DNA of 24,000 nucleotides from assembly GCA_000270325.1 (NCBI GenBank), contig BA000048.1, forward strand, positions 1,315,494-1,339,493. Direction: 5' to 3'. The notes beneath the pieces were generated by a model. It did not search any database and was not told the origin of the DNA. It saw only the letters and a list, made by a program, of their open reading frames with translations. Position numbers and translations under genes: made by a program. Below are positions 3,562-24,000 of this stretch, one piece after another; the stretch's first letter is position 1, and each line of letters begins with the position of its first letter. The stretch is from Candidatus Caldarchaeum subterraneum. GTDB taxonomy: Archaea; Thermoproteota; Nitrososphaeria_A; Caldarchaeales; Caldarchaeaceae.

Positions 3562-4605
3562 ATGTTTCAAGTCCTCTCGCCCGAGGGCTTCGCCGAGGAG
3601 GAGCTTGACCCCGGGCTGCTTTTGTCGATGTACCGCGATATGGTTTGTGCACGTGTTCTAGATAGGTGGCTTATGCGTCTTCAACGCATGGGGAAAATAG
3701 GTATCCACGCTCCCTCCGAGGGACAGGAGGCCGCTGGCGTTGGGACGGCCTATGCACTCGGAACAAACGATTGGATATTCCCGCTTTACCGCGAGCTACC
3801 GGTCTTTGTTGCGCGAAGGGTCCCCATAGCGGACATAGTTAACAGAAACCTAGCAAACTCGGCTGATCCCCTTAAGGGCAGAGACTTCGCCGTATACGGT
3901 GATATCAAGCACCGCATAGTTCCCGCCCCCATTCCTGTCGCGGTGCATATCCCCTCGGCCGTCGGCTTCGCGCTCTCCCTCAAATACAAGAAACTAAGCG
4001 AAGTGGTGATAAACTACTTCGGCGACGGGGCGACGTCGAAGGGAGATTTTCACGAGGCACTCAACTTCGCCGGCGTCTTCAAAGCGCCCATAGTTTTTGT
4101 TTGTGTCAACAACCAGTATGCCATTTCTGTTCCGGTGAGTAGGCAGACGGCTGTAGAGCATCTGTCGTTGAAGGCTGCGGCGTATGGGTTTGAGGGGGTT
4201 AGCGTGGATGGGAACGATGTGGTGGCTTGTTATCTCGCCGCTAAGAAAGCTGTTGAGAAGGCGAGACGCGGTGAGGGCCCTACGTTGATTGAGGCGGTGA
4301 CCTACAGGATTGGTCCACACACGACAGCCGATGACCCGTCACGATACAGAGATGATAAAGAGGTTGAGATGTGGCGGAGAAGAGACCCAATCACAAGGCT
4401 GCGGAGCCATCTACTGCGACGCGGTCTCTGGAGCATGGAAGAAGACGAGAAACTCTGGCGAACAACCGAGCAGACCATACAAAAAACCATAGAAGAATGC
4501 GAAAAGAATCGACCGCTGCCTCCCGAGTCTATCCTTGAGGATGTCTACGCAACGCCACCGTGGCATCTAATAGAGGAGAAGGAGGAGTTCAGTCAGCTGC
4601 GGTAA
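3562..4605 (+). CDS. 2-oxoacid (pyruvate/branched-chain) dehydrogenase E1 component, alpha subunit (TPP-dependent)
   Basis: 347 aa with the E1-alpha TPP motif YFGDGATSKGDFHEALNFAGVFKAPIVFVCVNNQYAIS and YRIGPHTTADDPSRYR. An AT-rich promoter-like region (TTTAATTAA) and GAAGGT lie upstream of the ATG. Confidence 0.85.
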   Translation: MFQVLSPEGFAEEELDPGLLLSMYRDMVCARVLDRWLMRLQRMGKIGIHAPSEGQEAAGVGTAYALGTNDWIFPLYRELPVFVARRVPIADIVNRNLANSADPLKGRDFAVYGDIKHRIVPAPIPVAVHIPSAVGFALSLKYKKLSEVVINYFGDGATSKGDFHEALNFAGVFKAPIVFVCVNNQYAISVPVSRQTAVEHLSLKAAAYGFEGVSVDGNDVVACYLAAKKAVEKARRGEGPTLIEAVTYRIGPHTTADDPSRYRDDKEVEMWRRRDPITRLRSHLLRRGLWSMEEDEKLWRTTEQTIQKTIEECEKNRPLPPESILEDVYATPPWHLIEEKEEFSQLR

Positions 4606-4996
4606 ACCATTTGATGTCATGGATGCTGCCAACACGTTTTTCACGGAAAACCGGCTTAACCTTCATACCTGTTCGAGGTGTCTTCGACGGGTCAAGCATG
4701 TGAAGCAACCCGCCCAAGGTATCCACGAACCTCACAAAAACCCATACAATCTCTTCACCTGCCTCACCGTCGGCGAGCATCCGTGACCGTGTGTAGGTTT
4801 GAACTACGGCAGCGGGGTCGACCTCGATGTATTCGTTTATGGGTTTGAAGCAGTCGAGGCAGTATGCTCGCGGCGGCACATGTTTTGAAGAGCATTTTCC
4901 ACATCTGCTTGCGATGATTTTTCCGTTGTGGAGGCCTTCGAGGAATTTTGAGAGGGCGACGCCTGCCGGATATTCATAATAGCTTTCGATCTCCAT
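4589..4996 (-). CDS. DUF35 family protein (rubredoxin-like Zn ribbon + OB fold), short paralog
   Basis: 135 aa. It has a Zn ribbon CGKCSSKHVPPRAYCLDC followed by an OB-fold-like C-terminus (...GMKVKPVFREK...). It is the last gene of the five-gene operon, 2 nt after the upstream DUF35 gene. Confidence 0.75.
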   Translation of the reverse strand: MEIESYYEYPAGVALSKFLEGLHNGKIIASRCGKCSSKHVPPRAYCLDCFKPINEYIEVDPAAVVQTYTRSRMLADGEAGEEIVWVFVRFVDTLGGLLHMLDPSKTPRTGMKVKPVFREKRVGSIHDIKWFTAAD

Positions 4997-4998
4997 GG

Positions 4999-5643
4999 CT
5001 ATTCACCCGCGGGCTTGAAATGGCTTATGTCGAGGATGCTTCCTCTCCGCTGCTCCGCTGGCTTCCAAACAGGCTTCACCCTCATGCCAATTCGGACATC
5101 GCCGGGGCCGCACTCGCGGATTATGTGCATAAGACCAGCAGCGTGGAAAACTGTTTTTGACGACGGCGTCTCTCTAACAGTGTCTTTGAACCAGAGGACT
5201 GCCACGATGTTGGGCTCGGCCAACCTAACCCCAGGGTCTGTGCCGATATAAGCCAGCGAATAGGTTGAGACAACTGCTTCACCGTTGTGCTCAACCCAGT
5301 CCGAGACCTCTCTCATGCACCATTCGCAGAAGAGACGCGGCGGTATCAACACTCTTCCGCATCCGCTGCACCGTGTCCCGAATAACCTACCCTCCCGAAG
5401 TCCTTGGAGAAACTTGGCAAGAGCCTCACCCGGCGTGTCAGCGTACCTACACAGTATTCTCCAGTGGCTTAGGACAAGATGTTCAACACTCCACATCTCG
5501 GAATATTTTTTGTTCAAAGCATCTTCCCAATCCTTTCCATATTCTTTGTCGAGTCCGTTTTTGAGGAGGTGTTGGCCGATGGCTTTAGGTATCTGTTGCA
5601 GATAATCCTGCGTGTATACTATTCTCTTTGTCATACTCTGCAC
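4999..5643 (-). CDS. DUF35 family protein, long paralog with ~85-aa N-terminal extension
   Basis: 214 aa. The core is ...ALAKFLQGLREGRLFGTRCSGCGRVLIPPRLFCEWC... plus an OB-like C-terminus (GMRVKPVWKPAEQ), paralogous to the 135-aa protein (ALSKFLEGLHNGKIIASRCGKCS). The extra N-terminal segment contains no motif I recognise. The gene overlaps the upstream thiolase-like gene by 13 nt. Confidence 0.7.
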   Translation of the reverse strand: MQSMTKRIVYTQDYLQQIPKAIGQHLLKNGLDKEYGKDWEDALNKKYSEMWSVEHLVLSHWRILCRYADTPGEALAKFLQGLREGRLFGTRCSGCGRVLIPPRLFCEWCMREVSDWVEHNGEAVVSTYSLAYIGTDPGVRLAEPNIVAVLWFKDTVRETPSSKTVFHAAGLMHIIRECGPGDVRIGMRVKPVWKPAEQRRGSILDISHFKPAGE

Positions 5644-6785
5644 ACCACCACCTGCCCCACCTGCATCAAATCACCCCAAGCCTGAGCAACACCGACATAC
5701 GCGTTTGGGACCTGGCGTTTTCCAGCTCTTCCGCTCAGCTGCCAGTAGAGTTCCGCCACCTTCATGAGGCCTGCGGCGGCTATCGGGTTGCCCACTCCCA
5801 GCAACCCGCCTGAAGGCGATGTTGGATGGTCGCCGTCTCTCTCCAGCTGACCTTCTTCGAGGAGCCTTGGAGCGAGTCCTGGTTTGCCGAGAAGAGCGTC
5901 GAGGTGATGTAGCTCCTTGTATGTGAAGGGGTCGTAGGGCTCGAAGACATCGATTTCTTTCAACGGATTGGTTATACCCGCCATTTTGTAGGCTTGCTGG
6001 GCTGCGAGGTAGACGTAGTAGGGGTAGCAGAGGTCTCTGTTTGTCCAGTATTGGCTGTCGAGGCATGCGCCGACTCCATCAACCCATACAGGTGTGTCGG
6101 TTATCTTCTTGGCTTCATGCTCTGATGCGAACAACAGGGCCACGGCGCCGTCTGATGTGGGGCTGATGTCAAGCCTATGGACCGGCCAGACGAGGACGGG
6201 TGATTTGAGGACATCGTCCACAGTTATTTTTGCTCCGAGCTGTGAATATGGATGGTCCAAGGCGTTGGCCTTGTTTTTGACCGCGACTCTTGCGATAAGC
6301 TCCTTCTCTAGTGCGTGTTTCTCCATGTAGCGGCGCATCTCCAAGGCGAATATCCAGATGAGGTTGGGGCCAAGAGGCTGTTCAAGTATCGGCTCGAATA
6401 TTGAGCGGAAAAGTGGCTGCGCATGGGGATAGGGATGGCTCATCTTCTCCCACGCGACGACCAGAACCTTATCAAATAATCCCGAGGCAACATGCCACCA
6501 CCCTGATATGGCAACCCCCACACCGGTGCCGCCTCCGACAAAGACACGTGAAAAAGGTTTGGCAAATGCTCCGGAAGGCTCAACAGCAACGAGTCCCTTG
6601 TGATGATAGCCGTCAAAAGCGTCGGGCGCCGAGCCACCTACCACAGCATCAACATCACCTGCATCAAGCCCAGCGTCGTCTAAGCATTTCCTCACGGCCT
6701 CGAAAACCATCTCCTCGGAAGTCATGGGCAACATGGAGCGGAAATACGTCATCCCAGCGCCAACAATAGCTACACGTCGTCGCAC
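5631..6785 (-). CDS. Thiolase-fold (SCP-x/archaeal thiolase-like) protein B, lacking canonical catalytic Cys/His
   Basis: 384 aa. Thiolase-like blocks: MRRRVAIVGAGMTYF, LDISPTSDGAVALLFAS, SPSGGLLGVGNPIAAAGL. At the nucleophile position (usually V-E-A-A-C-A-S-G) it reads RVFVGGGTGVGVA. The GHP histidine is Asn (GNP). The C-terminal H-N-x-G-G block reads AQAWGD. Confidence 0.75.
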   Translation of the reverse strand: MRRRVAIVGAGMTYFRSMLPMTSEEMVFEAVRKCLDDAGLDAGDVDAVVGGSAPDAFDGYHHKGLVAVEPSGAFAKPFSRVFVGGGTGVGVAISGWWHVASGLFDKVLVVAWEKMSHPYPHAQPLFRSIFEPILEQPLGPNLIWIFALEMRRYMEKHALEKELIARVAVKNKANALDHPYSQLGAKITVDDVLKSPVLVWPVHRLDISPTSDGAVALLFASEHEAKKITDTPVWVDGVGACLDSQYWTNRDLCYPYYVYLAAQQAYKMAGITNPLKEIDVFEPYDPFTYKELHHLDALLGKPGLAPRLLEEGQLERDGDHPTSPSGGLLGVGNPIAAAGLMKVAELYWQLSGRAGKRQVPNAYVGVAQAWGDLMQVGQVVVCRV

Positions 6786-6791
6786 ACATCA

Positions 6792-7892
6792 TCACCCCGC
6801 CGACAAGACGACAACAGAGCCGCCGTCAACAACCTCGCCGTCGACAGACGCGACCAAGCACCCGCTCCACCTACCCATCCTCAGCAGCTTAACCGCCTGC
6901 ACAACTCTCTGCAGCCCCGCGGCATTAAGCGGATAACCCATCCCGATACAGCCACCCGACGGGTTAACAGGCAACGCTCCATCAAACATGAAATCACCAC
7001 CGCGAACACCTTTCAAAACATCTCCGTCGTAGACACCCAGCTCATCCAACACCATCAACTCCGTGGAAGCGAAAGACTCCGAAACCTCCACAAACTCCAC
7101 AACCCTCCTCAGGGAACCCGGTAACGCTTTTGAGACAGCTGGCCTCACCCAGGCAAACTTCCCGAAAACCCTCTCCGACAAATCGGAAGAATGAGAACCA
7201 TGGGCAAACCCGACACCCTTCACCACAGCCTTCGCAGAACGATTGTCAGATGACAAAAGCACAACAGAGGCATAGTCACAGAGGCGAGCCACATGGCTTC
7301 TCCTCAAAGGCTCTGAAACAAACTCCTCGGACTCGATTTTCTCTATGTCGGTGTCTGCTCCGTATGCTGCGGCTGAATTTCGCAGCGCGTTGCGGATGTT
7401 CTTCGCGGCGACGATGGACAGGTCGCGTGGCTCACCATTCCGGCGTGAAAGGAAGGCCTGTGCATCGAGGGCAGCTATCGAGAAGTGATGAATCAGCAGG
7501 GGGCGGATAAGGTGTGGGTCCCAGGTGTTCAGCAGTATTTCGCCGTAGTTGAGTATGTTTGAGGATTTGGCGTAGGCTGTTACTAGAACGTTTTTGAACC
7601 AGCCTGTTTTGATGAGCATGTATGCGTGGATGAATGCGTTGAGCGAGTCGTTTGAGACAAGAGTGTTGAACTTAAGCCTTCCACCAACTTGGTCAGGTGT
7701 GTAGGAGTCGGTGATGCTTATGCCCTCAAAGAAGTCTAGGCCGCTAGCCACAACCGCATCTATCTCGGAGACCTCTGACTCCGAGTCTTCGAGACAGTTT
7801 TTGAAAGCTTTGAAGAGCATTTCGCGGAAATCTTGTGTATAGGATGGTTTGCAGGGGATTTCGCCGACACCTGCTACATAGACCTCGGTCAA
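6792..7892 (-). CDS. Thiolase-fold protein A, highly divergent and lacking canonical catalytic Cys/His
   Basis: 366 aa. Thiolase-like blocks: MTEVYVAGVGEIP, NPSGGCIGMGYPLNAAGLQRV. The nucleophile region reads NTLVSNDSLNAF with no Cys between residues ~35 and ~200. GHP is replaced by GYP. The SDGAAA block is replaced by CDYASV. Confidence 0.7.
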   Translation of the reverse strand: MTEVYVAGVGEIPCKPSYTQDFREMLFKAFKNCLEDSESEVSEIDAVVASGLDFFEGISITDSYTPDQVGGRLKFNTLVSNDSLNAFIHAYMLIKTGWFKNVLVTAYAKSSNILNYGEILLNTWDPHLIRPLLIHHFSIAALDAQAFLSRRNGEPRDLSIVAAKNIRNALRNSAAAYGADTDIEKIESEEFVSEPLRRSHVARLCDYASVVLLSSDNRSAKAVVKGVGFAHGSHSSDLSERVFGKFAWVRPAVSKALPGSLRRVVEFVEVSESFASTELMVLDELGVYDGDVLKGVRGGDFMFDGALPVNPSGGCIGMGYPLNAAGLQRVVQAVKLLRMGRWSGCLVASVDGEVVDGGSVVVLSAG

Positions 7893-7902
7893 GAATTCAC
7901 CT

Positions 7903-9045
7903 CTAGTATGATTTGGGGAGGCCGAGGACGTGGGTGCCGATGTATGAGAGTATCAGCTCGTTGGCGACGGGGGCTGTGAGAAAGAGCCTGATAACGGGGT
8001 AGAAGGTGATGATGTCTGTGCCAAGGTCGTAGGCGCTTCCGCCGAAGGTCTGCATGGCGGCCTCAAAAGCCTCCAACCCAGCCTCAGACGCGACAAGCTT
8101 CGCCATGTTAGCCTCAGCTCCACAGGGCTTGCCAGCGTCAAAAAGACTCGCCGCCTCATAGTTCAGCACACGCGCCGCCTCGAGCCTAGCCTTTGCCCTC
8201 GCCATCCTAAACTGCAGCCCCTGATAACTTCCCACGGGATGCCCGAAGACAACCCTCTGACGCCCATACTCCGCGGCCCGTCGCAGAACATGGTCCCCCA
8301 ACCCGATGCTACACGCCGCGATAAGCATACGCTCAACGTTCAACCCGTCGAACAAAACATCCACCCCACGGTCCAGCCTACCAACCAGATTCTCCTCACC
8401 CAATTCGACCATGTCAAAATACACCGTGTACTGTGTCTCGGGAGAGTAGAGCTCGATGTTGAGCGGCTCAAACATAACTCCGCTTGTCCGTGTCTCGAGC
8501 GCGAACACAGAAATCCCGTCTCTCTTATCCGAAACTTTTTGGAGAGGCTTTGTCCGCGCCACGACGACCAGATAATCCGACTCCCGTGCCCCGGTGATGA
8601 ATGTTTTCTGACCGTTCAAAACAAACCCGCCATTCCTTCTCTCGGCGAAGGTCTTTATCCGCCAGGTCTCGGAGCCAGCCTCAGCCTCAGTCAAAGCGAA
8701 GCTAATTTTTTTACCATGCTTGACAGTTGGGTCCACGAATCTTTCAAACTGCATCCGCGTGCCATGCCTCGCAATCATGACCCGCGAGAAATGGGTTGTG
8801 AGAAAATGTAGCAGCGGAATACCAGCTCTCGCCAACCCCTCCTGAACAAGGATGGCGTCGAGGGTGCCCGACCCCTCTACCACACCGGCCCCCGTCAACC
8901 CAGATTTCTGAAGCTCCTCCCAAAGAGGAACCGGCTCCCTTCTCTCACGACCATAAGCAAGCCAATTCCGTCTACCAAACCTCTCACCAACCTTCTCAGC
9001 AGTCTGGAGAACCAAAACCTGCTCATCGGAAAGCACGTTATTCAT
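7903..9045 (-). CDS. Acyl-CoA dehydrogenase family flavoprotein
   Basis: 380 aa with ACAD-typical layout: N-terminal LSDEQVLVLQTAEKV, FALTEAEAGSE, central beta domain, GLNVERMLIAACSIGLG, QRVVFGHPVGSYQGLQFRMA and FGGSAY. It is the first gene of the operon, 10 nt upstream of thiolase-like A. Confidence 0.85.
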   Translation of the reverse strand: MNNVLSDEQVLVLQTAEKVGERFGRRNWLAYGRERREPVPLWEELQKSGLTGAGVVEGSGTLDAILVQEGLARAGIPLLHFLTTHFSRVMIARHGTRMQFERFVDPTVKHGKKISFALTEAEAGSETWRIKTFAERRNGGFVLNGQKTFITGARESDYLVVVARTKPLQKVSDKRDGISVFALETRTSGVMFEPLNIELYSPETQYTVYFDMVELGEENLVGRLDRGVDVLFDGLNVERMLIAACSIGLGDHVLRRAAEYGRQRVVFGHPVGSYQGLQFRMARAKARLEAARVLNYEAASLFDAGKPCGAEANMAKLVASEAGLEAFEAAMQTFGGSAYDLGTDIITFYPVIRLFLTAPVANELILSYIGTHVLGLPKSY

Positions 9046-9102
9046 AGATTCTTTAGAATAATTAAGGTTTCCCGAACATCTCTAAAAAACAAAGCTTTAA
9101 AC

Positions 9103-9735
9103 ATGGTCGACGGCAACGTTTCGATAATGCTGATGCCTGGGAAGAAAATCGTTGTCTTAGGCATTCTAATACTTTTGATAATTCCAGTTTCGTTACTGGC
9201 GGTAAACCTGCCCCAAATTTTCACGAAGAAGCCGCCCAAGGATTTTTGGACAAACCCCATCGCTAAGCTGAAGGGGGGAAACCCGTACGCACTCTCGCTA
9301 GCCCTTTCCGGCACTGGGCTTATGGTTGTGGCCCAGTTCTACAGTGTTGTGAAGAGGGCTGGAAGGTTGTGGATGAAAAGGCTCGGTGGACCAAGAGCTT
9401 GGCTCATAATCCACGAAATTCTCGACGTTGTGGGTCCTATCCTAATATTGGTTCACGCCGGACTCAGCAAACCCAATTTCATCAATCTTTCTTGGTTAGC
9501 CAAAAGCCTTCAAAACAGTGTCGCCGGAATACCAGCGATGTTGGCACCGTTCCTTATAGCGAGCGGCCTTTTCGGGCGTCACCTTTACCGAAGGCTACCT
9601 GTCATGCAGAGGCAGTTCAGGCACTGGAGGACAGTCCACATAGCGTTGACGGCCATTTTCTATGTCGCAGGCTTAACCCACGTTCTTGTTAACACAAAAG
9701 TGTTCCAAACATTATTGAGTCTCCCAAAAGATTAA
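9103..9735 (+). CDS. Integral membrane protein, putative bis-His di-haem b-type cytochrome (ferric-reductase-domain / cytochrome-b-like)
   Basis: 210 aa with ~5 predicted TM helices. Two helices each carry an H-x13-H pair: HEILDVVGPILILVH and HIALTAIFYVAGLTH. It is transcribed divergently from the ACAD operon across a 57-nt spacer. Confidence 0.55.
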   Translation: MVDGNVSIMLMPGKKIVVLGILILLIIPVSLLAVNLPQIFTKKPPKDFWTNPIAKLKGGNPYALSLALSGTGLMVVAQFYSVVKRAGRLWMKRLGGPRAWLIIHEILDVVGPILILVHAGLSKPNFINLSWLAKSLQNSVAGIPAMLAPFLIASGLFGRHLYRRLPVMQRQFRHWRTVHIALTAIFYVAGLTHVLVNTKVFQTLLSLPKD

Positions 9736-9818
9736 ACTATTATCTACATCTCCATCAACCGGTCCCTCCCAGTAATGACTGAGATTAACGGGTTGTGAGG
9801 TGTAACATACCTAACTTA

Positions 9819-11807
9819 TCAGCCGCTACGCAGAATTTCCGCAGCTTTTTCGAAGAAGTCAAGTGACTCGGGGTTTCGGATGGATTCTCTGTTGGTGACT
9901 CTTCTTCCGTTGATGATGTTTGAAACGGCTATCTCGACTTTTTTCATGTTGTATGTGTAGGGGATGTCGGGTGCCTCCATGATGATGGCTGGGACGTGGC
10001 GTGGCGAAGCTCTCTCGCGGAGAGCCTGTTTGATTCGGTTCTTCAGCTCCTCGGTCAACACATAGCCCTCAGCCATTTTGACGAAGAGTATGATGCGTTG
10101 GTCGCCTCTCCACTCCTGTCCAACAGCCAAGCTGTCCGCAACCTCTCTAAAACTCTCGACGATAGAGTATATCTCAGCCGTCCCTATTCTGACTCCGGAT
10201 GGCTTGAGGACAGCATCAGACCTGCCGAGAAAAGTTATGCCGCCTGTGTCGCTGTGAAAGATGACGTAGTCGCCGTGTCTCCAGACACGCTTATGAGTGT
10301 AGTAGCGGAAGTATGCGTCAAGATATTTCTCGTCACCGGGGTCGTTGAGAAAATAGAGAGGCATGGGTGGAGCGGGTGCTTCGCAGACAAGCTCACCCTC
10401 CCTGTCAAAAACAGGCTCACCCCTCTCATCATAACACATTATCTTCATCCCCAGCGAGGGGGACTGAATCTGTCCAGCGTAGACAGGCAGTATAGGCGAG
10501 CCGTTTGCAAAAGTGCCGTTGATGTCTGTGCCGCCTGAAATGGAGTTAAAGTGCAAATCTCTCTTTACCTCATCATATATCCATTTGAAGCCCTCGGCGG
10601 AAAGCGGTGAACCTGTCTGGCTTATCTCCCGCAAACTCTCAAGACCAAACTCGCTGCGAGGAGAGGCCCCCATCCCTCTTAGAAGGTTGATGTAGCTCGC
10701 GCTACATCCAAAGATAGATATACCGTATTCGTCGATGAGGCGCCACATTCTTCTCCAGTCGGGATAGTTGGGGTCTCCGTCGTAGAGAAGCACCGTTCCT
10801 CCCGCGGCGAGGGAGGAGACCAGCCAGTTCCACATCATCCAGCTAGGCGTCGTAATGTAGGTAATCACCTCTCCCCGTTTTAGGTCACTATGAATAACCA
10901 CATCCTTGAGCTGGTTGACCAAGACCCCTGCCGCGGGCTGGACCATGCACTTAGGCTTCCCCGTTGTCCCCGATGAAAACATGATGTAGAGAGGGGTATC
11001 TGAAGGAACTTGGGCAAAATCTATCGCTCCACCCTCGCGAGCCTTAAAGTCGGGATATAGCACGGCCTCTGCCAAGCCATCTATTCGCGGGCTTTCAGAG
11101 AGATAGGGAATGACAACAACCTTCTGAATGGATTTAACCCGTTCAACAACCTGACTCACTCTCTCCAACACATCAAACGCCTTCCCCCTGTAAAGATATC
11201 CGTCAACCGTGAACAACACCTTCGGCTCGATTTGCCCAATCCTGTCGACGACGGCGTCAACGCCTAGCTCCGTCCCGACAGAAGACCACGAAGCACCGAG
11301 CGATGTAGCCCCAAGCATCGCAATCACGGTCTCCGGTATGTTGGGCAAGTATCCAGCCACCCTGTCTCCCGCTGCGACACCGGATTCACTTAACCCTCTC
11401 GCAACGGCTGCGACCTCGTTGTAGAACTCGAGAAACCTCATCGCATTCGTCTCACCATCCTCACGCACACCTATCAACGCGGCTTCGTGGCCTCTGTGCC
11501 TGAGAAGGTTCTCGGCAAAGTTCAGCCGCGCCCCCACGTACCAGCGTGCACCTGGAAATTTAGACAAGTCATCCACAACAGTCTCAAACCGCTTGGAGCA
11601 TTTTATCCCGAAAAAATCCCAAACATGCATCCAGAACCTCGGTATATTGGTTACAGACCATCGATACAGCTTAAAGTAGCTCCCCTTTTCGAAAACATCG
11701 AGACCCAGACCCTCATGGTCGTCGACAAACTTTATGAAAGAGTTCATGTTGGATTTGGCTACGACATCGGTTGAAGGCTCCCAGAGACGCATCCAATCAC
11801 AGGTCAT
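9819..11807 (-). CDS. Acetoacetyl-CoA synthetase-like AMP-forming acyl-CoA ligase
   Basis: ~660 aa. The N-terminus LWEPSTDVVAKSNMNSFIKFV is typical of acetoacetate-CoA ligases. AMP-binding motifs are present: MFSSGTTGKPKC, YGISIFGCSA, GGTDI, WRHGDY. The track start at 11819 is TTG. ATG 11807 or ATG 11792 (MRLWEPS) is more likely, given an AATTTTATT TATA-like box at ~11820-11830. Confidence 0.8.
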   Translation of the reverse strand: MTCDWMRLWEPSTDVVAKSNMNSFIKFVDDHEGLGLDVFEKGSYFKLYRWSVTNIPRFWMHVWDFFGIKCSKRFETVVDDLSKFPGARWYVGARLNFAENLLRHRGHEAALIGVREDGETNAMRFLEFYNEVAAVARGLSESGVAAGDRVAGYLPNIPETVIAMLGATSLGASWSSVGTELGVDAVVDRIGQIEPKVLFTVDGYLYRGKAFDVLERVSQVVERVKSIQKVVVIPYLSESPRIDGLAEAVLYPDFKAREGGAIDFAQVPSDTPLYIMFSSGTTGKPKCMVQPAAGVLVNQLKDVVIHSDLKRGEVITYITTPSWMMWNWLVSSLAAGGTVLLYDGDPNYPDWRRMWRLIDEYGISIFGCSASYINLLRGMGASPRSEFGLESLREISQTGSPLSAEGFKWIYDEVKRDLHFNSISGGTDINGTFANGSPILPVYAGQIQSPSLGMKIMCYDERGEPVFDREGELVCEAPAPPMPLYFLNDPGDEKYLDAYFRYYTHKRVWRHGDYVIFHSDTGGITFLGRSDAVLKPSGVRIGTAEIYSIVESFREVADSLAVGQEWRGDQRIILFVKMAEGYVLTEELKNRIKQALRERASPRHVPAIIMEAPDIPYTYNMKKVEIAVSNIINGRRVTNRESIRNPESLDFFEKAAEILRSG

Positions 11808-11834
11808 GCATGGCGGCAATAAAATTTTTTGGAG

Positions 11835-11942: not shown

Positions 11943-12008
11943 CTTCCTGAATGAAGATACGCGGTTGTGTATATTTGCAAACATAATGTTTTATCTATCC
12001 GTGTGGTG

Positions 12009-12578
12009 ATGATTGACGTGATGGCGCGGGAGGTTGTTAAGGGAAAGTGGGCGACGAGGTTCATAGTGGCGGCATATGTTCAGGGAGCTTTGGCTGTGGG
12101 TAACACCTTGTTCTGGGTGATTGGGCAGCTGGGGTTCATGAAGCCTGAGTTCAGCAGGGTGATAGCTTTCGGCAGCGCTGGCACATGGTTCACGGTGGGC
12201 TACCTCAGCTACCTCATAGTCGGAGTCATCGGAGTCGCCGTCACCGCCCTCTTCTACCACTACATCGAAAACGTTCTCGGCAAACCCTACAAAGGCCTCG
12301 CCAACGGCCTAGCATGGCTACACCTCATTCTAATGAATGTCGGCGTCATAGGCGCTACTTGGCTGATGATGGTGAGTGGATACTTGGCAGGAGCGGCTAT
12401 GCTTCCACCAGAGGTAGGCGGACGTGGATGGAACGCTGGACAAGTCCATACAAACATCTTCTACGGCATTCCCCTGGGGTATCCGACGTGGATAGCGTTG
12501 TTCATTTTCCTACTGGCTATCGGAGTCGCTTGCGGAGGCCTCGGCTACATACTGATGTGGCGACAAAGAGCAGAGTAG
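12009..12578 (+). CDS. Hypothetical integral membrane protein (4-5 TM)
   Basis: The ORF is strongly hydrophobic (FIVAAYVQGALAVGNTLFWVIG, YLIVGVIGVAVTALFY, LAWLHLILMNVGVIGATWLMMVSGYLAG, WIALFIFLLAIGVACGGLGYILMW) and I recognise no family. The start is uncertain: GTG 11967, ATG 12009 or ATG 12021. Confidence 0.55.
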   Translation: MIDVMAREVVKGKWATRFIVAAYVQGALAVGNTLFWVIGQLGFMKPEFSRVIAFGSAGTWFTVGYLSYLIVGVIGVAVTALFYHYIENVLGKPYKGLANGLAWLHLILMNVGVIGATWLMMVSGYLAGAAMLPPEVGGRGWNAGQVHTNIFYGIPLGYPTWIALFIFLLAIGVACGGLGYILMWRQRAE

Positions 12579-12667
12579 GCCATCTCACGTTAATACCCGT
12601 AGATACATCCCCCATTTTTTTGATGCAGCATTTTTATCCCAGGAGCCGTGATTCATCGTCATCGGAG

Positions 12668-13246
12668 ATGTTTCGGTTGTTCAGGAAGAAGGAGCCGCCT
12701 AAGCCGCCTTTCGACCAGAGGCTGTCAGAGATAGTTACACGGCTTATGACGATTCAGAACAGGATGGATTACAAGGCTCGAGCGATGCAGATGAGGGGTA
12801 GGGAGCTCTTCAACCAAATCGTCCGCGCTAAGATGGAGAAGGACGAGGAGCGTGCAGCTGTTTACGCCAACGAGCTCGCGCAGCTACGTAAAATGATGCA
12901 TGCAACGGTTAGGAGCCAGGCCTCGCTCGAAGGGGTTGTTCTAAGGCTCGAGGCTGTCCGAGACTATAATGAGGTGAGGAAGGTCATCGGGCCCGTCGCA
13001 GCGGTTGTCATGGCTGTTCAGAAAGATGTCGGCGGGGTGATGCCCGAGATCTCCAGCGGGCTAAGAGGTGTTCAAGACCTTCTCGAAGACCTGTCAGTCA
13101 GCGTCGGCACCGTCTCAGACACCTACATCGGAGCATCAACGGCAGATCCGGAGGCCGAGGCGATTCTGCGAGAGGCTTCGGAGGTCGCAGCTCAGCGGCT
13201 GAAGAAAGACATGCCCGACATAGAGTCGGGACACTTCATAACATAA
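12668..13246 (+). CDS. ESCRT-III / Snf7-family (CdvB-like) protein
   Basis: 192 aa from internal ATG 12668. Features: a basic N-terminus MFRLFRKKEPPKPP; long helical-hairpin-like heptad segments with the CdvB/ESCRT-III-typical ...ERAAVYANELAQLRKM...; and an acidic C-terminal region ending in a short amphipathic EVAAQRLKKDM. The upstream 161 codons of track ORF 12185..13246 overlap the membrane-protein gene in another frame and were rejected. A TTTTTATC box at 12631-12638 fits a near-leaderless start. Confidence 0.7.
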   Translation: MFRLFRKKEPPKPPFDQRLSEIVTRLMTIQNRMDYKARAMQMRGRELFNQIVRAKMEKDEERAAVYANELAQLRKMMHATVRSQASLEGVVLRLEAVRDYNEVRKVIGPVAAVVMAVQKDVGGVMPEISSGLRGVQDLLEDLSVSVGTVSDTYIGASTADPEAEAILREASEVAAQRLKKDMPDIESGHFIT

Positions 13247-16217: not shown

Positions 16218-16570
16218 CGCAAACACGGATACTCTTCGTAATCCTCTCAGGCCCCAACGACTTTGAGAAAGCGAGACAGGGCCTCCGCATCGCCAGAAAC
16301 ATAGCCAAGGAAAAAATCGCAACCGAGGTAAAACTTCTGTTCGTCGGCCCCGGAACCACTCTCCTCGACCCAGACAACCAACACTACGACATAGTCAAAC
16401 ACTATGCAACAGAGCTGAACCAAGCGGGAGCAAGATGCACCGTTTGCGCAGGAAACCTCCGCGTCTACAAACTTGAGGAAAAAATAGACAAAAACCTCTT
16501 CATAGCCGACGACTCCACCGCCGTCGTCGCCGAAGCTGCGTTGAACGGCTTCACCATCCTCACCTTCTAA
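16214..16570 (+). CDS. DsrE/DsrF-like (sulfur-relay fold) family protein
   Basis: 118 aa: MTQTRILFVILSGPNDFEKARQGLRIARNIA...VKLLFVGPG...AGARCTVCAGNLRVY...TILTF. It shows the DsrE-family pattern of an N-terminal beta-strand plus SGP, and a conserved Cys region. Its ATG overlaps the leuS stop (ATGA). Confidence 0.6.
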   Translation: MTQTRILFVILSGPNDFEKARQGLRIARNIAKEKIATEVKLLFVGPGTTLLDPDNQHYDIVKHYATELNQAGARCTVCAGNLRVYKLEEKIDKNLFIADDSTAVVAEAALNGFTILTF

Positions 16571-16995
16571 ACACCGCCGTCTCGGAGCACAGCGCGGGAA
16601 ACCCACCCCGTCTCAGATTTTCTTAACCACTGCTTTTCGACAATTTTTTCCGCCTCCCTCCTCAGCTTCTCAAACAGCTGTTCATCTCCACACAGTAACC
16701 TACCTTCCAAAACAGCGTCCAAAACCAAGGTGTTAAGACGACTCAGCTCCTCAAACACTTCATCAACAGTGTAGTTAAAGATTTGCGCAGGCCACTTCAA
16801 AACAACCCTGTCACCCCGCCGTTTCTTTATCACGAGAAGATCATAGTCACTAAGCGGTGTCTCTTCACCACGAGCCCGCGACCCAAACAAAATCACAAGA
16901 AGAGAATCTCCACATAGTTCATCCTTGATCGCCTCAAACTCTTTCTCCTTCAACGTGGACAATTTCCTAGATATGTTCACCCAATTCGTCGACAT
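16567..16995 (-). CDS. Minimal nucleotidyltransferase (MNT) domain protein, partner of HEPN
   Basis: 142 aa with the NTase signature LFGSRARGEETPLSDYDLLV (G-S-x10-D-x-D). It lies 6 nt downstream of the HEPN gene on the same strand. Confidence 0.8.
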   Translation of the reverse strand: MSTNWVNISRKLSTLKEKEFEAIKDELCGDSLLVILFGSRARGEETPLSDYDLLVIKKRRGDRVVLKWPAQIFNYTVDEVFEELSRLNTLVLDAVLEGRLLCGDEQLFEKLRREAEKIVEKQWLRKSETGWVSRAVLRDGGV

Positions 16996-17001
16996 ACCTG
17001 A

Positions 17002-17326
17002 TTATCCTCCGCATGCATAGTCCACTACCCCTGTGTCTGGGTATCTCGCCGCAGCATAATGTCTCTCCAGCTTGGACGCACAGATTAGTAAATCCTGAGG
17101 GACCTCCTTTTGAAATATAATCGAAAGGGTGTTCAGCATCTCTGTTATGGAGTGAGTGTATGGTCTTGCTCCCGTTCTCTTTACAAGCAACCCTTTAAGA
17201 AGCATTTCCACTGATTGCTGTGCAAAAAAAAGAAGCTGAATCATAACGGCCCAGCCGGAAATCATCCTCGGCATATCTGATGAATCTCCTCGCCTTCTCA
17301 AACCATGTTTCCCATATCCCCAAGCC
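17002..17326 (-). pseudogene. HEPN domain protein, reading frame broken by +1 nt in a T8 (plus-strand A8) homopolymer
   Basis: The C-terminal frame (track ORF 17002..17334) gives AQQSVEMLLKGLLVKRTGARPYTHSITEMLN...KLERHYAAARYPD, a HEPN core. The canonical HEPN N-terminus WFEKARRFIRYAEDDFRLGRYDSASFF is encoded from TTG 17326 in a different frame and terminates shortly after the A-run at 17224-17231. Removing one base gives a continuous 108-aa HEPN protein. Confidence 0.8.
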
Positions 17327-17464
17327 ATCATCAACTTCAGGTTAAGTGAGTTAAAGACGTTGCGCCATATGTAAACTGCCTGCCCATGTTGTTGCGTAGC
17401 AAATATGTCTGCTGTGCTGAATGAACAGCCCAGCCTTCGTAATGCTTATTTATGATGGATTAGC

Positions 17465-21125: not shown

Positions 21126-21512
21126 ATGAGGAAGGAGATCATCTTCACGGAGAAGGCTCCCAAGCCGATAGGGCCGTATTCGCAGGCTGTTCGGGTTGGC
21201 GATTTTCTTTTCCTCTCAGGCATGGTTGCGATAAACCCCGCGACAGGAAAGGTCGAGGAAACCGATATTAGGTCCCAGACTAGACGGGTTATGGAGAACG
21301 CCAAAGCCATACTCGAGGCTGCGGGCCTGTCTTTCGAACATGTCGTAAAAGCTACGGTTTATCTGGCGAACCCCGATGACTTTGCGGCGATGAACGAGGT
21401 ATACAGCCAATATTTTCCACAGAATCCACCGGCTCGAACAACTGTTGCGGTACATTTTCCGCGGAAAGAGTTTCTGGTGGAGATTGACTTTATCGCTTAC
21501 ATGGGGCGGTGA
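21126..21512 (+). CDS. ridA: RidA/YjgF/L-PSP family reactive-intermediate (enamine/imine) deaminase
   Basis: 128 aa with KAPKPIGPYSQAVRVGDFLFLSGMVAINPATGK..., PARTTVAV and VEIDFIA, the canonical RidA family motifs. Confidence 0.88.
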   Translation: MRKEIIFTEKAPKPIGPYSQAVRVGDFLFLSGMVAINPATGKVEETDIRSQTRRVMENAKAILEAAGLSFEHVVKATVYLANPDDFAAMNEVYSQYFPQNPPARTTVAVHFPRKEFLVEIDFIAYMGR

Positions 21513-23616
21513 ATTCGAGAGTTTCGAGGGGATGGTAGACGGGTAGAGCTGTACCGTCGCTGATGTGTATTTTGCATACGCTGCTTGTCGAGACCACGTA
21601 GCTGCAGCCGCTTGCCTTCATTCTGCTGAAAAGCTCTTCTCCCACCACGTTGGATAGCTCGTAGCCAAGTACTCCATGCTTCATGCCGAACGTGCCGGCC
21701 ATGCCGCAGCAGGTCCCAGTCTCCACAACTGTTGCATCTATTCCGGCCGTGTTTAGAAGTGCTACGACTTCGCGGCATGAGTTAAAGGCTCTTTCATGGC
21801 ATGGGATGTGGACAGCGGCTCTGCCCTCCATCATGGGTTTGGCCTCAAGCCTGCCGTCTATGAGGAGGTTGTGCAGCAGCATGGTTAGCGAGGTGGTTGC
21901 CTCGGACACTTTCTCCGCATCTGGGGAGTGGTTGAGTAACTTGGGGTAGAGGTGTTTAAGAGTGTACGTGGCTGTCGGCTCGATGGAGACAATTACTGCG
22001 CCATCGCCGAGTGCCTTGGAAAGGTTTCCCACGTTGTATTCCGCCAGTTTCCTTGCTTTGTCAAGGTCGCCGTAGGCGAAGTATGGGTATCCGCTTGAGC
22101 GCTGGGGTGGAAGCGAAACTCTGTAACCCGCCTGTATCAGGGCGTCCACCGCCTTCGCTCCGATGTCAGGTCTCAGATACCTTGCGAAAAAGTCGGCGAA
22201 AAACACGGCATCGGCACCGTTCTCGACAACTTTTCCACGCAAAAGCTTGTCAAGAGGCTTGGCGGCGACCCTCGGCAACGTTCTTCTACGCTCTATGCCA
22301 AGAAACTTCTCCATGAAAAGGCGTGTGATGGTTGAAGAGATGAGAGTGTTGAAGAGACGTGGAAACTTGGAGCCCATTCTGTAGGCTGTTTCATAGCTTT
22401 CGACAACCTTGTTGACAAATAATTGTCCACCCTTCTGAACATAGCGATGCTTTACCTCGGCAATCATGTATGGCATGTCGATTATCGTTGGGCAGATTTC
22501 TTTGCAAAGCCCGCAGGATATGCATAGTGGGGCGAACTCCGCGGCTTTCTCGAGGCCATGTACAAAAGCTGTCCAAGGGATGCCTATCGGTCCTGTGTAG
22601 ATGTGTCCGAAAACGTGTCCGCCGAGGGATGAGTAGGTGGGGCAGATGTTCATGCATGCGCCGCATCTGATGCAGTAGAGTGCTTCCCGGAAGACGGGGT
22701 CATCACGCATGGATGAGCGTCCGTTATCGATTATGACTATGTGCATCTCACGTTCCTCGGCATGGCCTGCTAGGGGTGTTCTCCCCGAGAGGAATGAGAC
22801 ATAGTTTGTGAGCCACTGGCCCGTTGAGCTTACTGGATGTGCGACTATGAGTTTGAGCGCGTCCTCGATTTTTTCGACAAGCTTCTCCATGCCCATGACT
22901 GCTATGTATGTTTTGGCGGGGATGTTGCCCAGCCTATCGTTTCCCTCGTTTGTCTCCACAATCACCGTGCCTGTCTCTGCTATTGCTATGTTTACTCCTG
23001 TTATCGCCAACTCGGCTGTGAGAAACCTTTCTCTCAGATATTCGCGGGCGAAGTTCATCAACTCGCTGATGTCGTCGCTCAGCTTTCTTCCCGCTTCTCT
23101 GCTAAAGAGCTCCGCAACATCTTGACGTGTTTTGTGGACGGCGGGATAAACGAGGTGGAACGGCCTCTCACCCGCAAGCTGGACAATCAGCTCCCCCAAA
23201 TCGGTGTCAACAACCCTGAGTCCATGCTTTTCGAGAAACTGGTTAAGCCCAATCTCCTCTGTGGTCATCGACTTGCTCTTCGTAATTAGACGAGCATTCT
23301 TCTGCTCAGCTATGCGGTAAACTATTCGACACGCGTCCTCCGCATCTTTCGCCACATAGACTCTTGTCCCCCTTTTTTCGCAGTTTTGGATAAATTGTTG
23401 AAGTAGCTTGTCGAGATTATTTACCGCGTGTGCCTTAGCCTCTCGAGCCTCGTGTCTAAATTTTTCAAAGTCGGGGGCCAATAGCTGTATGGCCTCGCTT
23501 CTCTTGTCAAGCGTCCTGAATAGTGCATCCCTTAGATATTTTCGCCAATCGCTTTTAGGGAGGACGGTTGCCACTTTTTCAGATAAAACATGATGTAGCT
23601 CAGAGGCTTTTCTCAT
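21490..23616 (-). CDS. Fused LutB-LutA-like iron-sulfur oxidoreductase (LUD domain + 2x[4Fe-4S] ferredoxin + two CCG domains)
   Basis: ~708 aa. The N-terminal third is LUD/DUF162-like. It carries CIRCGACMNICP and CISCGLCKEICP ferredoxin motifs. The C-terminal ~260 aa is LutA/GlcF/HdrD-like, with an intact CCG domain (HIPCH...TGTCCGMAGTFG...SSVCK). ATG 23616 forms an ATGA overlap with the LutC stop, whereas the track start at 23628 is GTG. Confidence 0.78.
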   Translation of the reverse strand: MRKASELHHVLSEKVATVLPKSDWRKYLRDALFRTLDKRSEAIQLLAPDFEKFRHEAREAKAHAVNNLDKLLQQFIQNCEKRGTRVYVAKDAEDACRIVYRIAEQKNARLITKSKSMTTEEIGLNQFLEKHGLRVVDTDLGELIVQLAGERPFHLVYPAVHKTRQDVAELFSREAGRKLSDDISELMNFAREYLRERFLTAELAITGVNIAIAETGTVIVETNEGNDRLGNIPAKTYIAVMGMEKLVEKIEDALKLIVAHPVSSTGQWLTNYVSFLSGRTPLAGHAEEREMHIVIIDNGRSSMRDDPVFREALYCIRCGACMNICPTYSSLGGHVFGHIYTGPIGIPWTAFVHGLEKAAEFAPLCISCGLCKEICPTIIDMPYMIAEVKHRYVQKGGQLFVNKVVESYETAYRMGSKFPRLFNTLISSTITRLFMEKFLGIERRRTLPRVAAKPLDKLLRGKVVENGADAVFFADFFARYLRPDIGAKAVDALIQAGYRVSLPPQRSSGYPYFAYGDLDKARKLAEYNVGNLSKALGDGAVIVSIEPTATYTLKHLYPKLLNHSPDAEKVSEATTSLTMLLHNLLIDGRLEAKPMMEGRAAVHIPCHERAFNSCREVVALLNTAGIDATVVETGTCCGMAGTFGMKHGVLGYELSNVVGEELFSRMKASGCSYVVSTSSVCKIHISDGTALPVYHPLETLEFTAPCKR

Positions 23617-24000
23617 AGCCAGCTGCACACCACCGCCAAGACGTGATGAGGACCATGGATGCCCAGCACAAGCCTCTGCTCAATATCCCCCGACCTGCTC
23701 GGGCCCGAGATAAATGTGACAGCAACTCTATCCCTCTCCATGGCTGAGCGAAGCAGGTCAGAAGTCATGTAAACAGATTTGACTACGGAGGAGCCGTTGA
23801 CAAAGCATACATAGGTTTTGGGGAGGCTTGAGACGAGGCGTTCAACGTCGTCGAAGGCGACCTCGACTAGGGTTCCCGTCTCCGCCACTGCTGCGGCCGC
23901 TGTGGATATTCCCGCGTCTACAATTTTGACCACGTTGACAGGGTCTTCGGAGGAATCATATGTATAGGCTTGGATGCCCATTTCCTTCAATTTTTTCTCA
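23613..24000 (-). CDS. LutC-like LUD-domain protein (N-terminus beyond window end)
   Basis: The frame stays open to the window edge (...EKKLKEMGIQAYTY...). The sequence GISTAAAAVAETGTLVEV...RLVSSLPKTYVCFV...VTFISGPSRSGDIEQ..LGIHGPHHVLAVV is the typical LUD/LutC C-terminal pattern (AETG, SGPSxTxDIE, G.HGP). Confidence 0.72.
   Translation of the reverse strand, partial: EKKLKEMGIQAYTYDSSEDPVNVVKIVDAGISTAAAAVAETGTLVEVAFDDVERLVSSLPKTYVCFVNGSSVVKSVYMTSDLLRSAMERDRVAVTFISGPSRSGDIEQRLVLGIHGPHHVLAVVCSWL

Follow-up and report, generated by a model that had tools for sequence, protein, structure and literature searches.

The window analyzed here, a stretch of 24,000 nucleotides from Candidatus Caldarchaeum subterraneum, carries a single minus-strand operon with two genes for thiolase-fold proteins, which we call A and B, at its center. 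The operon opens with an acyl-CoA dehydrogenase (ACAD) gene (7903 to 9045; Pfam Acyl-CoA_dh_N/M/1). It continues with protein A (6792 to 7892, 366 amino acids), a fast-evolving subunit of an "Asp-loop," Ltp4-like class, and protein B (5631 to 6785, 384 amino acids), a highly conserved, Cys-less subunit of an Ltp3-like class, both reading frames being as described in the initial annotation. It closes with two DUF35 genes, a long form of 214 amino acids with a Cys4 zinc ribbon and an OB fold (4999 to 5643; Pfam zf-ChsH2 and OB_ChsH2_C) and a short form of 135 amino acids (4589 to 4996; Pfam zf-ChsH2). The end of the ACAD gene lies 10 bp from the start of A, and 6 bp separate A from B; the long DUF35 gene overlaps the end of B by 13 nucleotides and is followed after 2 bp by the short one. 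Protein A matches a Ca. Caldarchaeum subterraneum protein at 100% identity, and the top matches of B are likewise from Caldarchaeum. We refer to A, B, and the two DUF35 genes as the cassette.

Do A and B retain the residues that a thiolase needs? The initial annotation, based on an alignment by eye, had held that both have lost them, and its register proved correct. The motifs on which it relied start in B at residues 80 (RVFVGGGTGVGVA), 332 (GNPIAAAG), and 367 (AQAWGD) and in A at residues 76 (NTLVSNDSLNAF), 319 (GYPLNAAG), and 347 (VASVDGEVVDGG). Its Cys positions were right for B (34, 241, 253, and 382) and for the first three in A (14, 33, and 205); the last two in A are really at 315 and 345, one to two residues from where they had been placed. 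Hidden Markov model (HMM)-based alignment to solved thiolases bore out the register. With phmmer, B matched the Pyrococcus thiolase 7yvy over its full length (E 7e-48), as well as the Methanothermococcus thiolase 6esq. The alignment pairs "vfvGGGTGv" of B with "ieAACASGg" of 7yvy, so that Gly replaces the nucleophilic Cys; "EPYDPFT" pairs with "EVHDAFT" (7yvy) and "EVHDCFA" (6esq), and "GNPIAAAG" pairs with "GHPVGATG." A profile of the A family (35 sequences) aligned with these thiolases from one end to the other (E 2e-52), with a 3-residue deletion exactly over the thiolase "CAS," "EVxExFA" at the HDCF position, and "GxP" at the GHP position. In a MAFFT alignment, the control, a canonical thiolase from a related Bathyarchaeota locus, keeps AACASS, HDCF, GHP, and HNVGG, whereas A and B do not. 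The HMMER, profile, and MAFFT alignments thus agree: neither protein has the nucleophilic Cys of canonical thiolases (the xxCxS/G loop at the N terminus of helix N-alpha-3) or the HDCF acid/base Cys and GHP His, and a Cys/His/Cys (or His) triad appears in neither protein in any of the three.

Could a catalytic Cys be hidden elsewhere? We examined 84 loci and ortholog sets of 84 B and 74 A sequences. The most Cys-rich alignment column held Cys in 49 of the 84 B orthologs and in 44 of the 74 A orthologs, and no hidden catalytic Cys was found in A or B by way of alternative registers, family profiles, or this per-column census. Across the ortholog alignments of all four subunits, there was no conserved Cys besides the DUF35 zinc ligands, which excludes the covalent thiolase mechanism. 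Judged by these alignments, the loss of the triad is a property of the family and not a chance feature of a single sequence.

The motifs that replace the thiolase residues in B are highly conserved. In the nucleophile loop GGGTG (6522 to 6536, minus strand, like all motifs below), Gly stands in place of Cys (G85/G86) in 84/84 orthologs. At the HDCF position, B reads YDPF (5925 to 5936), with Tyr284 at its head, and each of the four residues is present in 84/84; the GHP His is replaced by Asn333 of GNP (5784 to 5792), again in 84/84. The C-terminal HNxGG block has become QAWGD (5670 to 5684; Q in 81, A in 83, W in 84, G in 84, and D in 83 of 84). Other invariant polar residues specific to the family include H61, H121, H178, D243, R250, H293, H294, and D372. 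Protein B belongs to the NCBIfam equivalog NF004721/PRK06065 (595 bits, cutoff 455), whose name, "thiolase domain-containing protein," carries no function. Identity to the window protein is 61 to 69% across archaeal phyla, with a median of 63% outside Caldarchaeales. Relative to the 91%-identical C. subterraneum genome L005, the ratio of nonsynonymous to synonymous substitution rates (dN/dS) is 0.044 for B, the lowest in the operon, compared to 0.075 for the ACAD, 0.105 for A, and 0.18 and 0.19 for the long and short DUF35 proteins; purifying selection thus acts on all four cassette proteins, most strongly on B. That the replaced motifs do not vary, together with this low dN/dS, argues for a working catalytic pocket in B rather than a scaffold surface.

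What chemistry might such a pocket support? In the aldolase TcLtp2, Tyr294 (within YDHF) serves as the catalytic base and Tyr344 as the acid; CtSal has Tyr302 (within YDCY) and Cys304 in these roles and Gly at the position of the nucleophilic Cys (PMC12329534). Both tetrapeptides are the counterpart of the HDCF motif of SCP2 thiolases (PMC12329534). We placed B relative to these enzymes by the published motif equivalence and by spacing; in the PDB search, true thiolases always ranked above 6OK1 and 9MYR, even with a C-terminal fragment as the query. The spacing between the two motif positions is 50 residues in 7yvy (H285 to H335), TcLtp2 (Y294 to Y344), and CtSal (Y302 to Q352) and 49 in B, which has a one-residue deletion. 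From this spacing, we infer that Tyr344 of Ltp2 sits at the position of the thiolase GHP His. The aldolase combination of Gly at the nucleophile position and Tyr at the head of the HDCF-equivalent motif is present in 84/84 B sequences and absent from A. The initial annotation had raised a repurposed, Ltp2-type site; this is our best reading for one subunit, and we propose that the subunit with the conserved new site, and the candidate for catalysis, is B rather than A.

Protein A has diverged further. Its AlphaFold2 model (predicted local distance difference test [pLDDT] score of 89.6) has an SCP2/archaeal-type thiolase fold, as does the AlphaFold model of B. The protein evolves about 2-fold faster than B, with a median identity of 33% outside Caldarchaeales. 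The best NCBIfam match of A is PRK06066 (NF004722), at 219 bits below the cutoff of 516, followed by PRK07937; partners of B from a Bathyarchaeota genome and an Actinomycetota metagenome-assembled genome (MAG) score 501 and 486 bits on PRK06066, just under the same cutoff. By these scores, A is a diverged relative of the PRK06066 family. Among its 74 orthologs, the nucleophile column is variable (S in 34, T in 12, A in 9, and G in 9), and the sole conserved feature there is Asp82 (7647 to 7649), two residues further on, within the loop remnant NDSL (residues 81 to 84; 7641 to 7652); this position is D in 72/74 and E in 2/74. The HDCF position reads SESF (7071 to 7082), with no His, Tyr, or Cys, and [D/S/E/N][D/E]x[F/Y] across the orthologs. 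Residues 53 to 70 form a conserved acidic motif, D-F-x-E-G-I-S-I-x-D-E-Y-x-P-D-Q-x-G, which, along with the Asp loop, argues against A being a featureless scaffold. The GYP of A (Tyr320; 6930 to 6938), at the GHP position, had been offered as a clue to an Ltp2-like site. As placed by spacing, it does coincide with the acid Tyr344 of Ltp2; however, the position is Y in only 30 of the 74 orthologs (N in 14, V in 10, and H in 9), and A has no base Tyr, so this Tyr is unlikely to be catalytic. Protein A is best read as an obligatory, largely noncatalytic partner.

Both DUF35 proteins find their best PDB match in 3irb (SSO2064), the long form with an E value of 3e-16 and the short form with an E value of 1e-14 in an alignment reaching through residue 102. 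The zinc ligands Cys92, Cys95, Cys106, and Cys109 of the long form are kept in 73 to 75 of 75 sequences, and Cys32, Cys35, Cys46, and Cys49 of the short form are conserved. Both show the Cys4 zinc ribbon followed by an OB fold that is typical of DUF35, the Pfam match of the short form covering the zinc ribbon only. Outside Caldarchaeales, their median identities are 38% (long) and 36% (short).

The initial annotation had considered a pair of degenerate thiolase folds unusual, a view that the distribution of the cassette does not sustain. Scanning one genome per prokaryotic species for the B-specific peptides YDPF[DT]YKE and AQAWGDLM, we confirmed at least 593 genomic stretches as relatives; moreover, the two sequence classes described below are abundant among database representatives, and the Ltp3-Ltp4 pair is a named precedent (PMC6678751). 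The best 80 of these relatives come from Caldarchaeales, Bathyarchaeia, other Nitrososphaerota, four Asgard groups, Acidilobaceae, Aeropyrum, Desulfurococcales, Thermoproteus, Thermocladium, and Sulfolobales, as well as five Actinomycetota MAGs and one Myxococcales MAG. Homologs of B in Bathyarchaeota, Promethearchaeota (Asgard), and Methanofastidiosia each lie in the order thiolase-like gene, B, DUF35, DUF35. A B ortholog was present in 83 of the 84 loci, accompanied by the upstream thiolase-like gene in 73, the first DUF35 gene in 74, and the second in 73; loci short of a cassette gene were mostly at contig ends. The tree of A mirrors that of B. In addition, a search of cluster representatives revealed natural single-chain fusions of B with both DUF35 domains, P0342 (731 amino acids) and P0350 (562 amino acids), and these, together with the strict gene adjacency, bear on the predicted association of DUF35 with the thiolase folds. 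The second zinc ribbon of P0342 is reduced to two of the four Cys.

The bacterial loci (L040, L043, L048, L049, and L053 from the Actinomycetota MAGs and L083 from the Myxococcales MAG) encode B proteins about 64% identical to the archaeal ones and also carry A-like and DUF35 partners. The A and B trees agree, a sign that the cassette may have moved as a unit by horizontal transfer; contaminated bins may also account for these loci.

An exhaustive HMMER search with B against 1.84 billion cluster representatives returned 389 proteins at E ≤ 1e-30, in which the B family is set apart by identities of at least 56%, followed by a sharp drop to 46% or less for all others. The full-length matches fall into three classes: class 1, with a Gly-rich loop, motif Tyr, and Asn-Pro, holds B and Ltp3-like proteins; class 2, with an Asp loop and otherwise variable, holds A and Ltp4-like proteins; and class 3 consists of canonical thiolases. 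The Asp loop is shared by A, the Ltp4-like proteins (as EMDA), and all 54 class 2 representatives. In a neighbor-joining tree of 145 sequences, the classes formed near-pure clades (F = 0.91, 0.98, and 0.89 for classes 1 to 3). Distant class 1 proteins were again found beside a class 2 protein and DUF35, one of them with crotonase and MaoC genes nearby.

How close is this arrangement to Ltp3-Ltp4? That pair is described as a heteromeric aldol-lyase that takes the C24 branch of phytosterol side chains off as acetyl- or propionyl-CoA (PMC6678751, PMC10832528, PMC6593523). In Mycobacterium tuberculosis, the gene order is Rv3521 (conserved hypothetical), Rv3522 (ltp4), and Rv3523 (ltp3), near fadD19 and echA19 (PMC6429209). 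After its top NCBIfam match, B scores next best on PRK08313 and A on PRK07937 ("lipid-transfer protein"), both far below the cutoff (251 bits versus 514 for B and 113 versus 419 for A). On a Tsukamurella plasmid, a 309-amino-acid protein with two DUF35 OB domains is followed by a PRK07937 member (593 bits) and a PRK08313 member (734 bits), and the trio adjoins enoyl-CoA hydratase, AMP-ligase, and P450 genes; in a Rhodococcus contig, a PRK07937/PRK08313 pair lies beside P450, thiolase, and TetR genes. The order agrees with that in M. tuberculosis. The Tsukamurella locus and the cassette alike have adjacent genes of a Cys-less Y-x-P-F/NP class and an Asp-loop class, plus two DUF35 domains. Bootstrapping of the 145-sequence tree grouped B with the Ltp3-like proteins in 22 of 40 replicates and A with the Ltp4-like proteins in 29 of 40. 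On this tree, A/B and Ltp4/Ltp3 probably descend from one ancestral pair.

The neighborhoods of the 84 loci point in part to acyl-CoA metabolism. An ACAD gene occurs no more than 8 kb from the cassette in 21/84 loci, an AMP-forming CoA ligase gene is found in 16/84, and a B12-dependent mutase with MeaB is nearby in about 10 Bathyarchaeia loci; in many Bathyarchaeia loci, a canonical, Cys-bearing thiolase and DUF35 pair adjoins the cassette in divergent orientation. The Asgard and Methanofastidiosia cassettes have no CoA-metabolism neighbor. The 84 neighborhoods yielded no consistent partner, be it a hydratase or a dehydrogenase, from which the substrate could be deduced. In the window, an acetoacetate-CoA ligase gene (9819 to 11819, minus strand; NCBIfam NF002937, 813 bits; TIGR01217, 752 bits) lies beyond the ACAD gene. 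A ligase of this kind adjoins the cassette at L005 to L007 and L009, a neighbor kept in Caldarchaeales and not in other phyla.

We consider that the cassette probably encodes an enzyme cleaving C-C bonds rather than a pair of dead proteins. With middling confidence, we propose a heteromeric complex of A, B, and both DUF35 proteins in which B would be a Cys-independent acyl-CoA C-C lyase. A and B would form a thiolase-type dimer with one DUF35 zinc-ribbon/OB protein capping each protomer, as in the solved thiolase2-DUF35(2) complexes but without their two-fold symmetry; gene order, co-evolution, and fusions give good support to the architecture of the cassette. B would most likely carry out a retro-aldol reaction, cleaving a 3-hydroxyacyl-CoA to an aldehyde or ketone and acetyl- or propionyl-CoA, or catalyze aldol addition in the opposite direction. 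As the general base, Tyr284 of YDPF would act on the 3-hydroxyl, and a backbone NH would come from the Gly-rich loop in the nucleophile's place, in the manner of Ltp2 and Sal; A, in which the canonical pocket is not conserved, would mainly serve as the partner protomer. It is the Gly/Tyr signature of B and the relationship to Ltp3-Ltp4 that suggest aldol or retro-aldol chemistry on 3-hydroxyacyl-CoA, and the ACAD, AMP-forming CoA ligase, and B12 mutase/MeaB neighbors support a setting in acyl-CoA metabolism. For Caldarchaeales, with ACAD and acetoacetate-CoA ligase beside the cassette, a role akin to 3-hydroxy-3-methylglutaryl-CoA (HMG-CoA) lyase or in branched-chain metabolism is a matter of speculation.

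Several observations weigh against this aldol-lyase proposal. The general acid of the solved aldolases is missing, Asn333 of B standing opposite Tyr344 of Ltp2 and Pro286 opposite Cys304 of Sal. The cassette holds no hydratase gene, and a crotonase gene is nearby in only 6/84 loci, which leaves the supply of 3-hydroxyacyl-CoA unexplained. The model of B is moderate (pLDDT of 69.5, with active-site loops below 50), and the fold searches placed B no nearer to the aldolases than to true thiolases. The assignment of Ltp3-Ltp4 as an aldol-lyase has genetic support, according to the papers that cite Wilbrink et al. 2012, and our literature search returned no biochemical or structural description of this type. 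PRK08313 and PRK07937 were equated with Ltp3 and Ltp4 by gene order and lengths, not by the M. tuberculosis sequences, and the name Ltp3 did not come up for PRK08313 members in a homology search or a cluster look-up. The tree support for the link is modest. A smaller neighbor-joining tree had made A and B sisters, as expected of an independent duplication, a grouping that the broader sampling of the 145-sequence tree did not support (3/40 replicates). Finally, we found no functional study of the cassette in a literature search covering SSO2061-2063, ST0096, and archaeal DUF35/thiolase-like systems.

One potential alternative, which we regard as rather unlikely, is that B is catalytic but performs another Cys-independent reaction on a CoA ester, such as decarboxylation, hydration/isomerization, or a noncovalent Claisen-type condensation. 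In the case of decarboxylation, the substrate would be of malonyl or beta-ketoacyl type; Cys-less ketosynthase partners decarboxylate such substrates. The missing acid residue, present in both solved aldolases, is compatible with this alternative, as are the many family-specific invariant polar residues of B. In addition, TbSLP, which has YDCF, slowly decarboxylates malonyl-CoA (PMC12329534); however, the authors of that study propose an aldolase function for TbSLP too. Moreover, the features that B shares with characterized enzymes, the Gly and the motif Tyr, are those of aldolases, and the related Ltp3-Ltp4 pair has been assigned aldol cleavage.

A second alternative is that neither A nor B is an enzyme and that the four proteins form a scaffold, an acyl-CoA binding or channeling module, or a regulator, serving other enzymes such as the ACAD or, in Bathyarchaeia, the adjoining canonical thiolase/DUF35 pair. 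All thiolase catalytic residues are gone from both proteins, that canonical pair is divergently adjacent in many Bathyarchaeia loci, and DUF35 proteins scaffold other complexes, namely, a thiolase/HMG-CoA synthase complex and the fatty acid synthase assembly of Sulfolobus acidocaldarius (bioRxiv 10.1101/2024.07.05.601840). Nevertheless, the replaced motifs of B are conserved as expected for a catalytic pocket, and the Asgard and Methanofastidiosia cassettes lie apart from any CoA-metabolism gene that such a module could serve. We view such a nonenzymatic role as distinctly improbable.

An extension of the aldol-lyase proposal, which we offer as a long shot, is a "hydratase-aldolase" made entirely of thiolase folds: the Asp of A would hydrate a 2-enoyl-CoA made by the ACAD, and B would then cleave the product by a retro-aldol reaction. 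If so, archaea would have a means of shortening acyl-CoAs without NAD or a thiolase. Such a route would fit beta-branched chains: their 3-hydroxy intermediates are tertiary alcohols and not oxidizable. Isoprenoid- or leucine-derived chains are candidates; in Caldarchaeales, an HMG-CoA-like substrate could yield acetoacetate for the adjacent acetoacetate-CoA ligase. Lastly, an error in the by-eye register, with A or B being in fact an ordinary thiolase whose Cys/His/Cys triad is well placed, is almost certainly not the explanation, given that phmmer, the family profile, and MAFFT with its internal canonical control all agree against it and that neither family has a conserved Cys column.

If B is indeed an aldol-lyase, then the cassette would represent a widespread and unrecognized C-C cleavage step in archaeal acyl-CoA metabolism. 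Public annotations call the cassette proteins "acetyl-CoA acetyltransferase" or "thiolase domain-containing protein"; in that case, metabolic reconstructions in which these genes are tallied as thiolases would be wrong. The cassette requires no new principle. The family includes thermostable proteins, and genetic tools exist for Sulfolobales; both would help in working out the Ltp3-Ltp4 type.

Other features of the window were also noted. Compared to genome L005, in which the flanks are contiguous, the window has a 750-bp insertion (9071 to 9820) between the acetoacetate-CoA ligase and ACAD genes; it holds a 210-amino-acid open reading frame (ORF) on the opposite strand (9103 to 9735) that is membrane-protein-like and has no Pfam match, and no terminal repeats were found in it. 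At the other end of the operon lies a 2-oxoacid dehydrogenase E1 alpha-type gene (3562 to 4605, plus strand; Pfam E1_dh, E 2e-86) that has no adjacent E1 beta gene; it runs toward the short DUF35 gene, and the two share 17 nucleotides at their 3' ends. Adjoining genes for an NTP_transf_2 nucleotidyltransferase and a HEPN-domain protein (16567 to 16995 and 17002 to 17334, minus strand) have the arrangement of an MNT-HEPN toxin-antitoxin system. A 712-amino-acid fusion of LUD, 4Fe-4S dicluster, and CCG domains (21490 to 23628, minus strand) is preceded by a second LUD-domain ORF that runs toward the window end (23613 to 23990, minus strand), both resembling the lactate utilization proteins LutB/LutC. 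The N-terminal half of the mechanically called ORF at 12185 to 13246 (plus strand) is Arg/Pro rich and implausible and overlaps a membrane-protein ORF (11967 to 12578); the Snf7/ESCRT-III match (E 5e-6) is confined to residues 186 to 330, and the true start of the gene therefore probably lies far downstream. No steroid genes were found among the window proteins.

How does the cassette compare with known systems? Foldseek searches with the models of A and B ranked 6et9/6esq, 7yvy, 4yzo, SCP2 thiolases, PhlC, Sal, and Ltp2 at the top. The best structural matches of A are archaeal thiolase systems with an integral DUF35 subunit (TM scores of 0.88 to 0.91); these keep the catalytic Cys and His and perform Claisen chemistry, whereas A and B lack these residues. 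The S. acidocaldarius fatty acid synthase was rejected as a version of the cassette, its ketothiolase/DUF35 pair being canonical and Cys-bearing. SSO2064 (PDB 3IRB), the first DUF35 protein to be solved, resembles both window DUF35 proteins to a degree within the range of cassette orthologs and is thus plausibly a subunit of the Sulfolobus version, although it was solved alone and annotated merely as a possible acyl-CoA binder. Another Sulfolobus structure, 4yzo (ST0096, the "thiolase-like protein" of Sulfolobus tokodaii), has lost the nucleophilic Cys (TSGSGG) and kept HD and GHP; by its motifs, it represents a further Cys-less state, distinct from A and B.

The PhlABC and MucABC acyltransferases (5M3K and 9VBO), also among the fold-search matches of A and B, likewise combine two distinct thiolase folds, one of them deemed noncatalytic, with DUF35 (PMC2954200). 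In these, however, PhlC is an active, Cys-dependent enzyme: it is termed the "catalytically active subunit" (PMC2954200), and the PDB titles include a CsATase C88S variant. PhlA belongs to the KAS III type, and the chemistry is acyl transfer to phenols. Ltp2-ChsH2 (6OK1) and Sal-Shy (9MYR) share with the cassette the SCP2 thiolase fold, a DUF35 partner (a predicted one in the cassette), the lack of the nucleophilic Cys, and, in B, a Tyr at the position of their catalytic base. They differ in being homodimers whose two DUF35 domains come from a hydratase, where the window has two distinct thiolase folds and free-standing DUF35 proteins, and in having a general acid (Tyr344 in Ltp2 and Cys304 in Sal) that B lacks.

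The closest parallel is the Ltp3-Ltp4 system. Ltp3-like proteins resemble B in Y-x-P-F, Asn-Pro, and a Cys-less, Gly-rich nucleophile loop, and Ltp4-like proteins resemble A in the Asp loop, at identities of only 27 to 33%. The C-terminal motif is QAWGD in B and HAYGG in the Ltp3-like proteins, and the DUF35 domains are encoded by separate genes after the thiolase-like genes in archaea, in contrast to a single fused gene before them in the actinobacterial locus. Ltp3-Ltp4 serves the degradation of C24-branched sterol side chains in actinobacteria, whereas the host of the window is an archaeon without a steroid-catabolic context. On this comparison, the cassette may be the archaeal counterpart of Rv3521-Ltp4-Ltp3. 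Cys-less thiolase-fold aldolases were already known from bacterial steroid catabolism, as Ltp2 and Sal and, genetically, as Ltp3-Ltp4. To these, the present analysis adds a large and very conserved archaeal branch of the heteromeric form, with two Cys-less thiolase folds and two DUF35 domains, that spans Bathyarchaeia, Asgard archaea, Sulfolobales, Thermoproteales, and others, groups in which sterol degradation is not expected.

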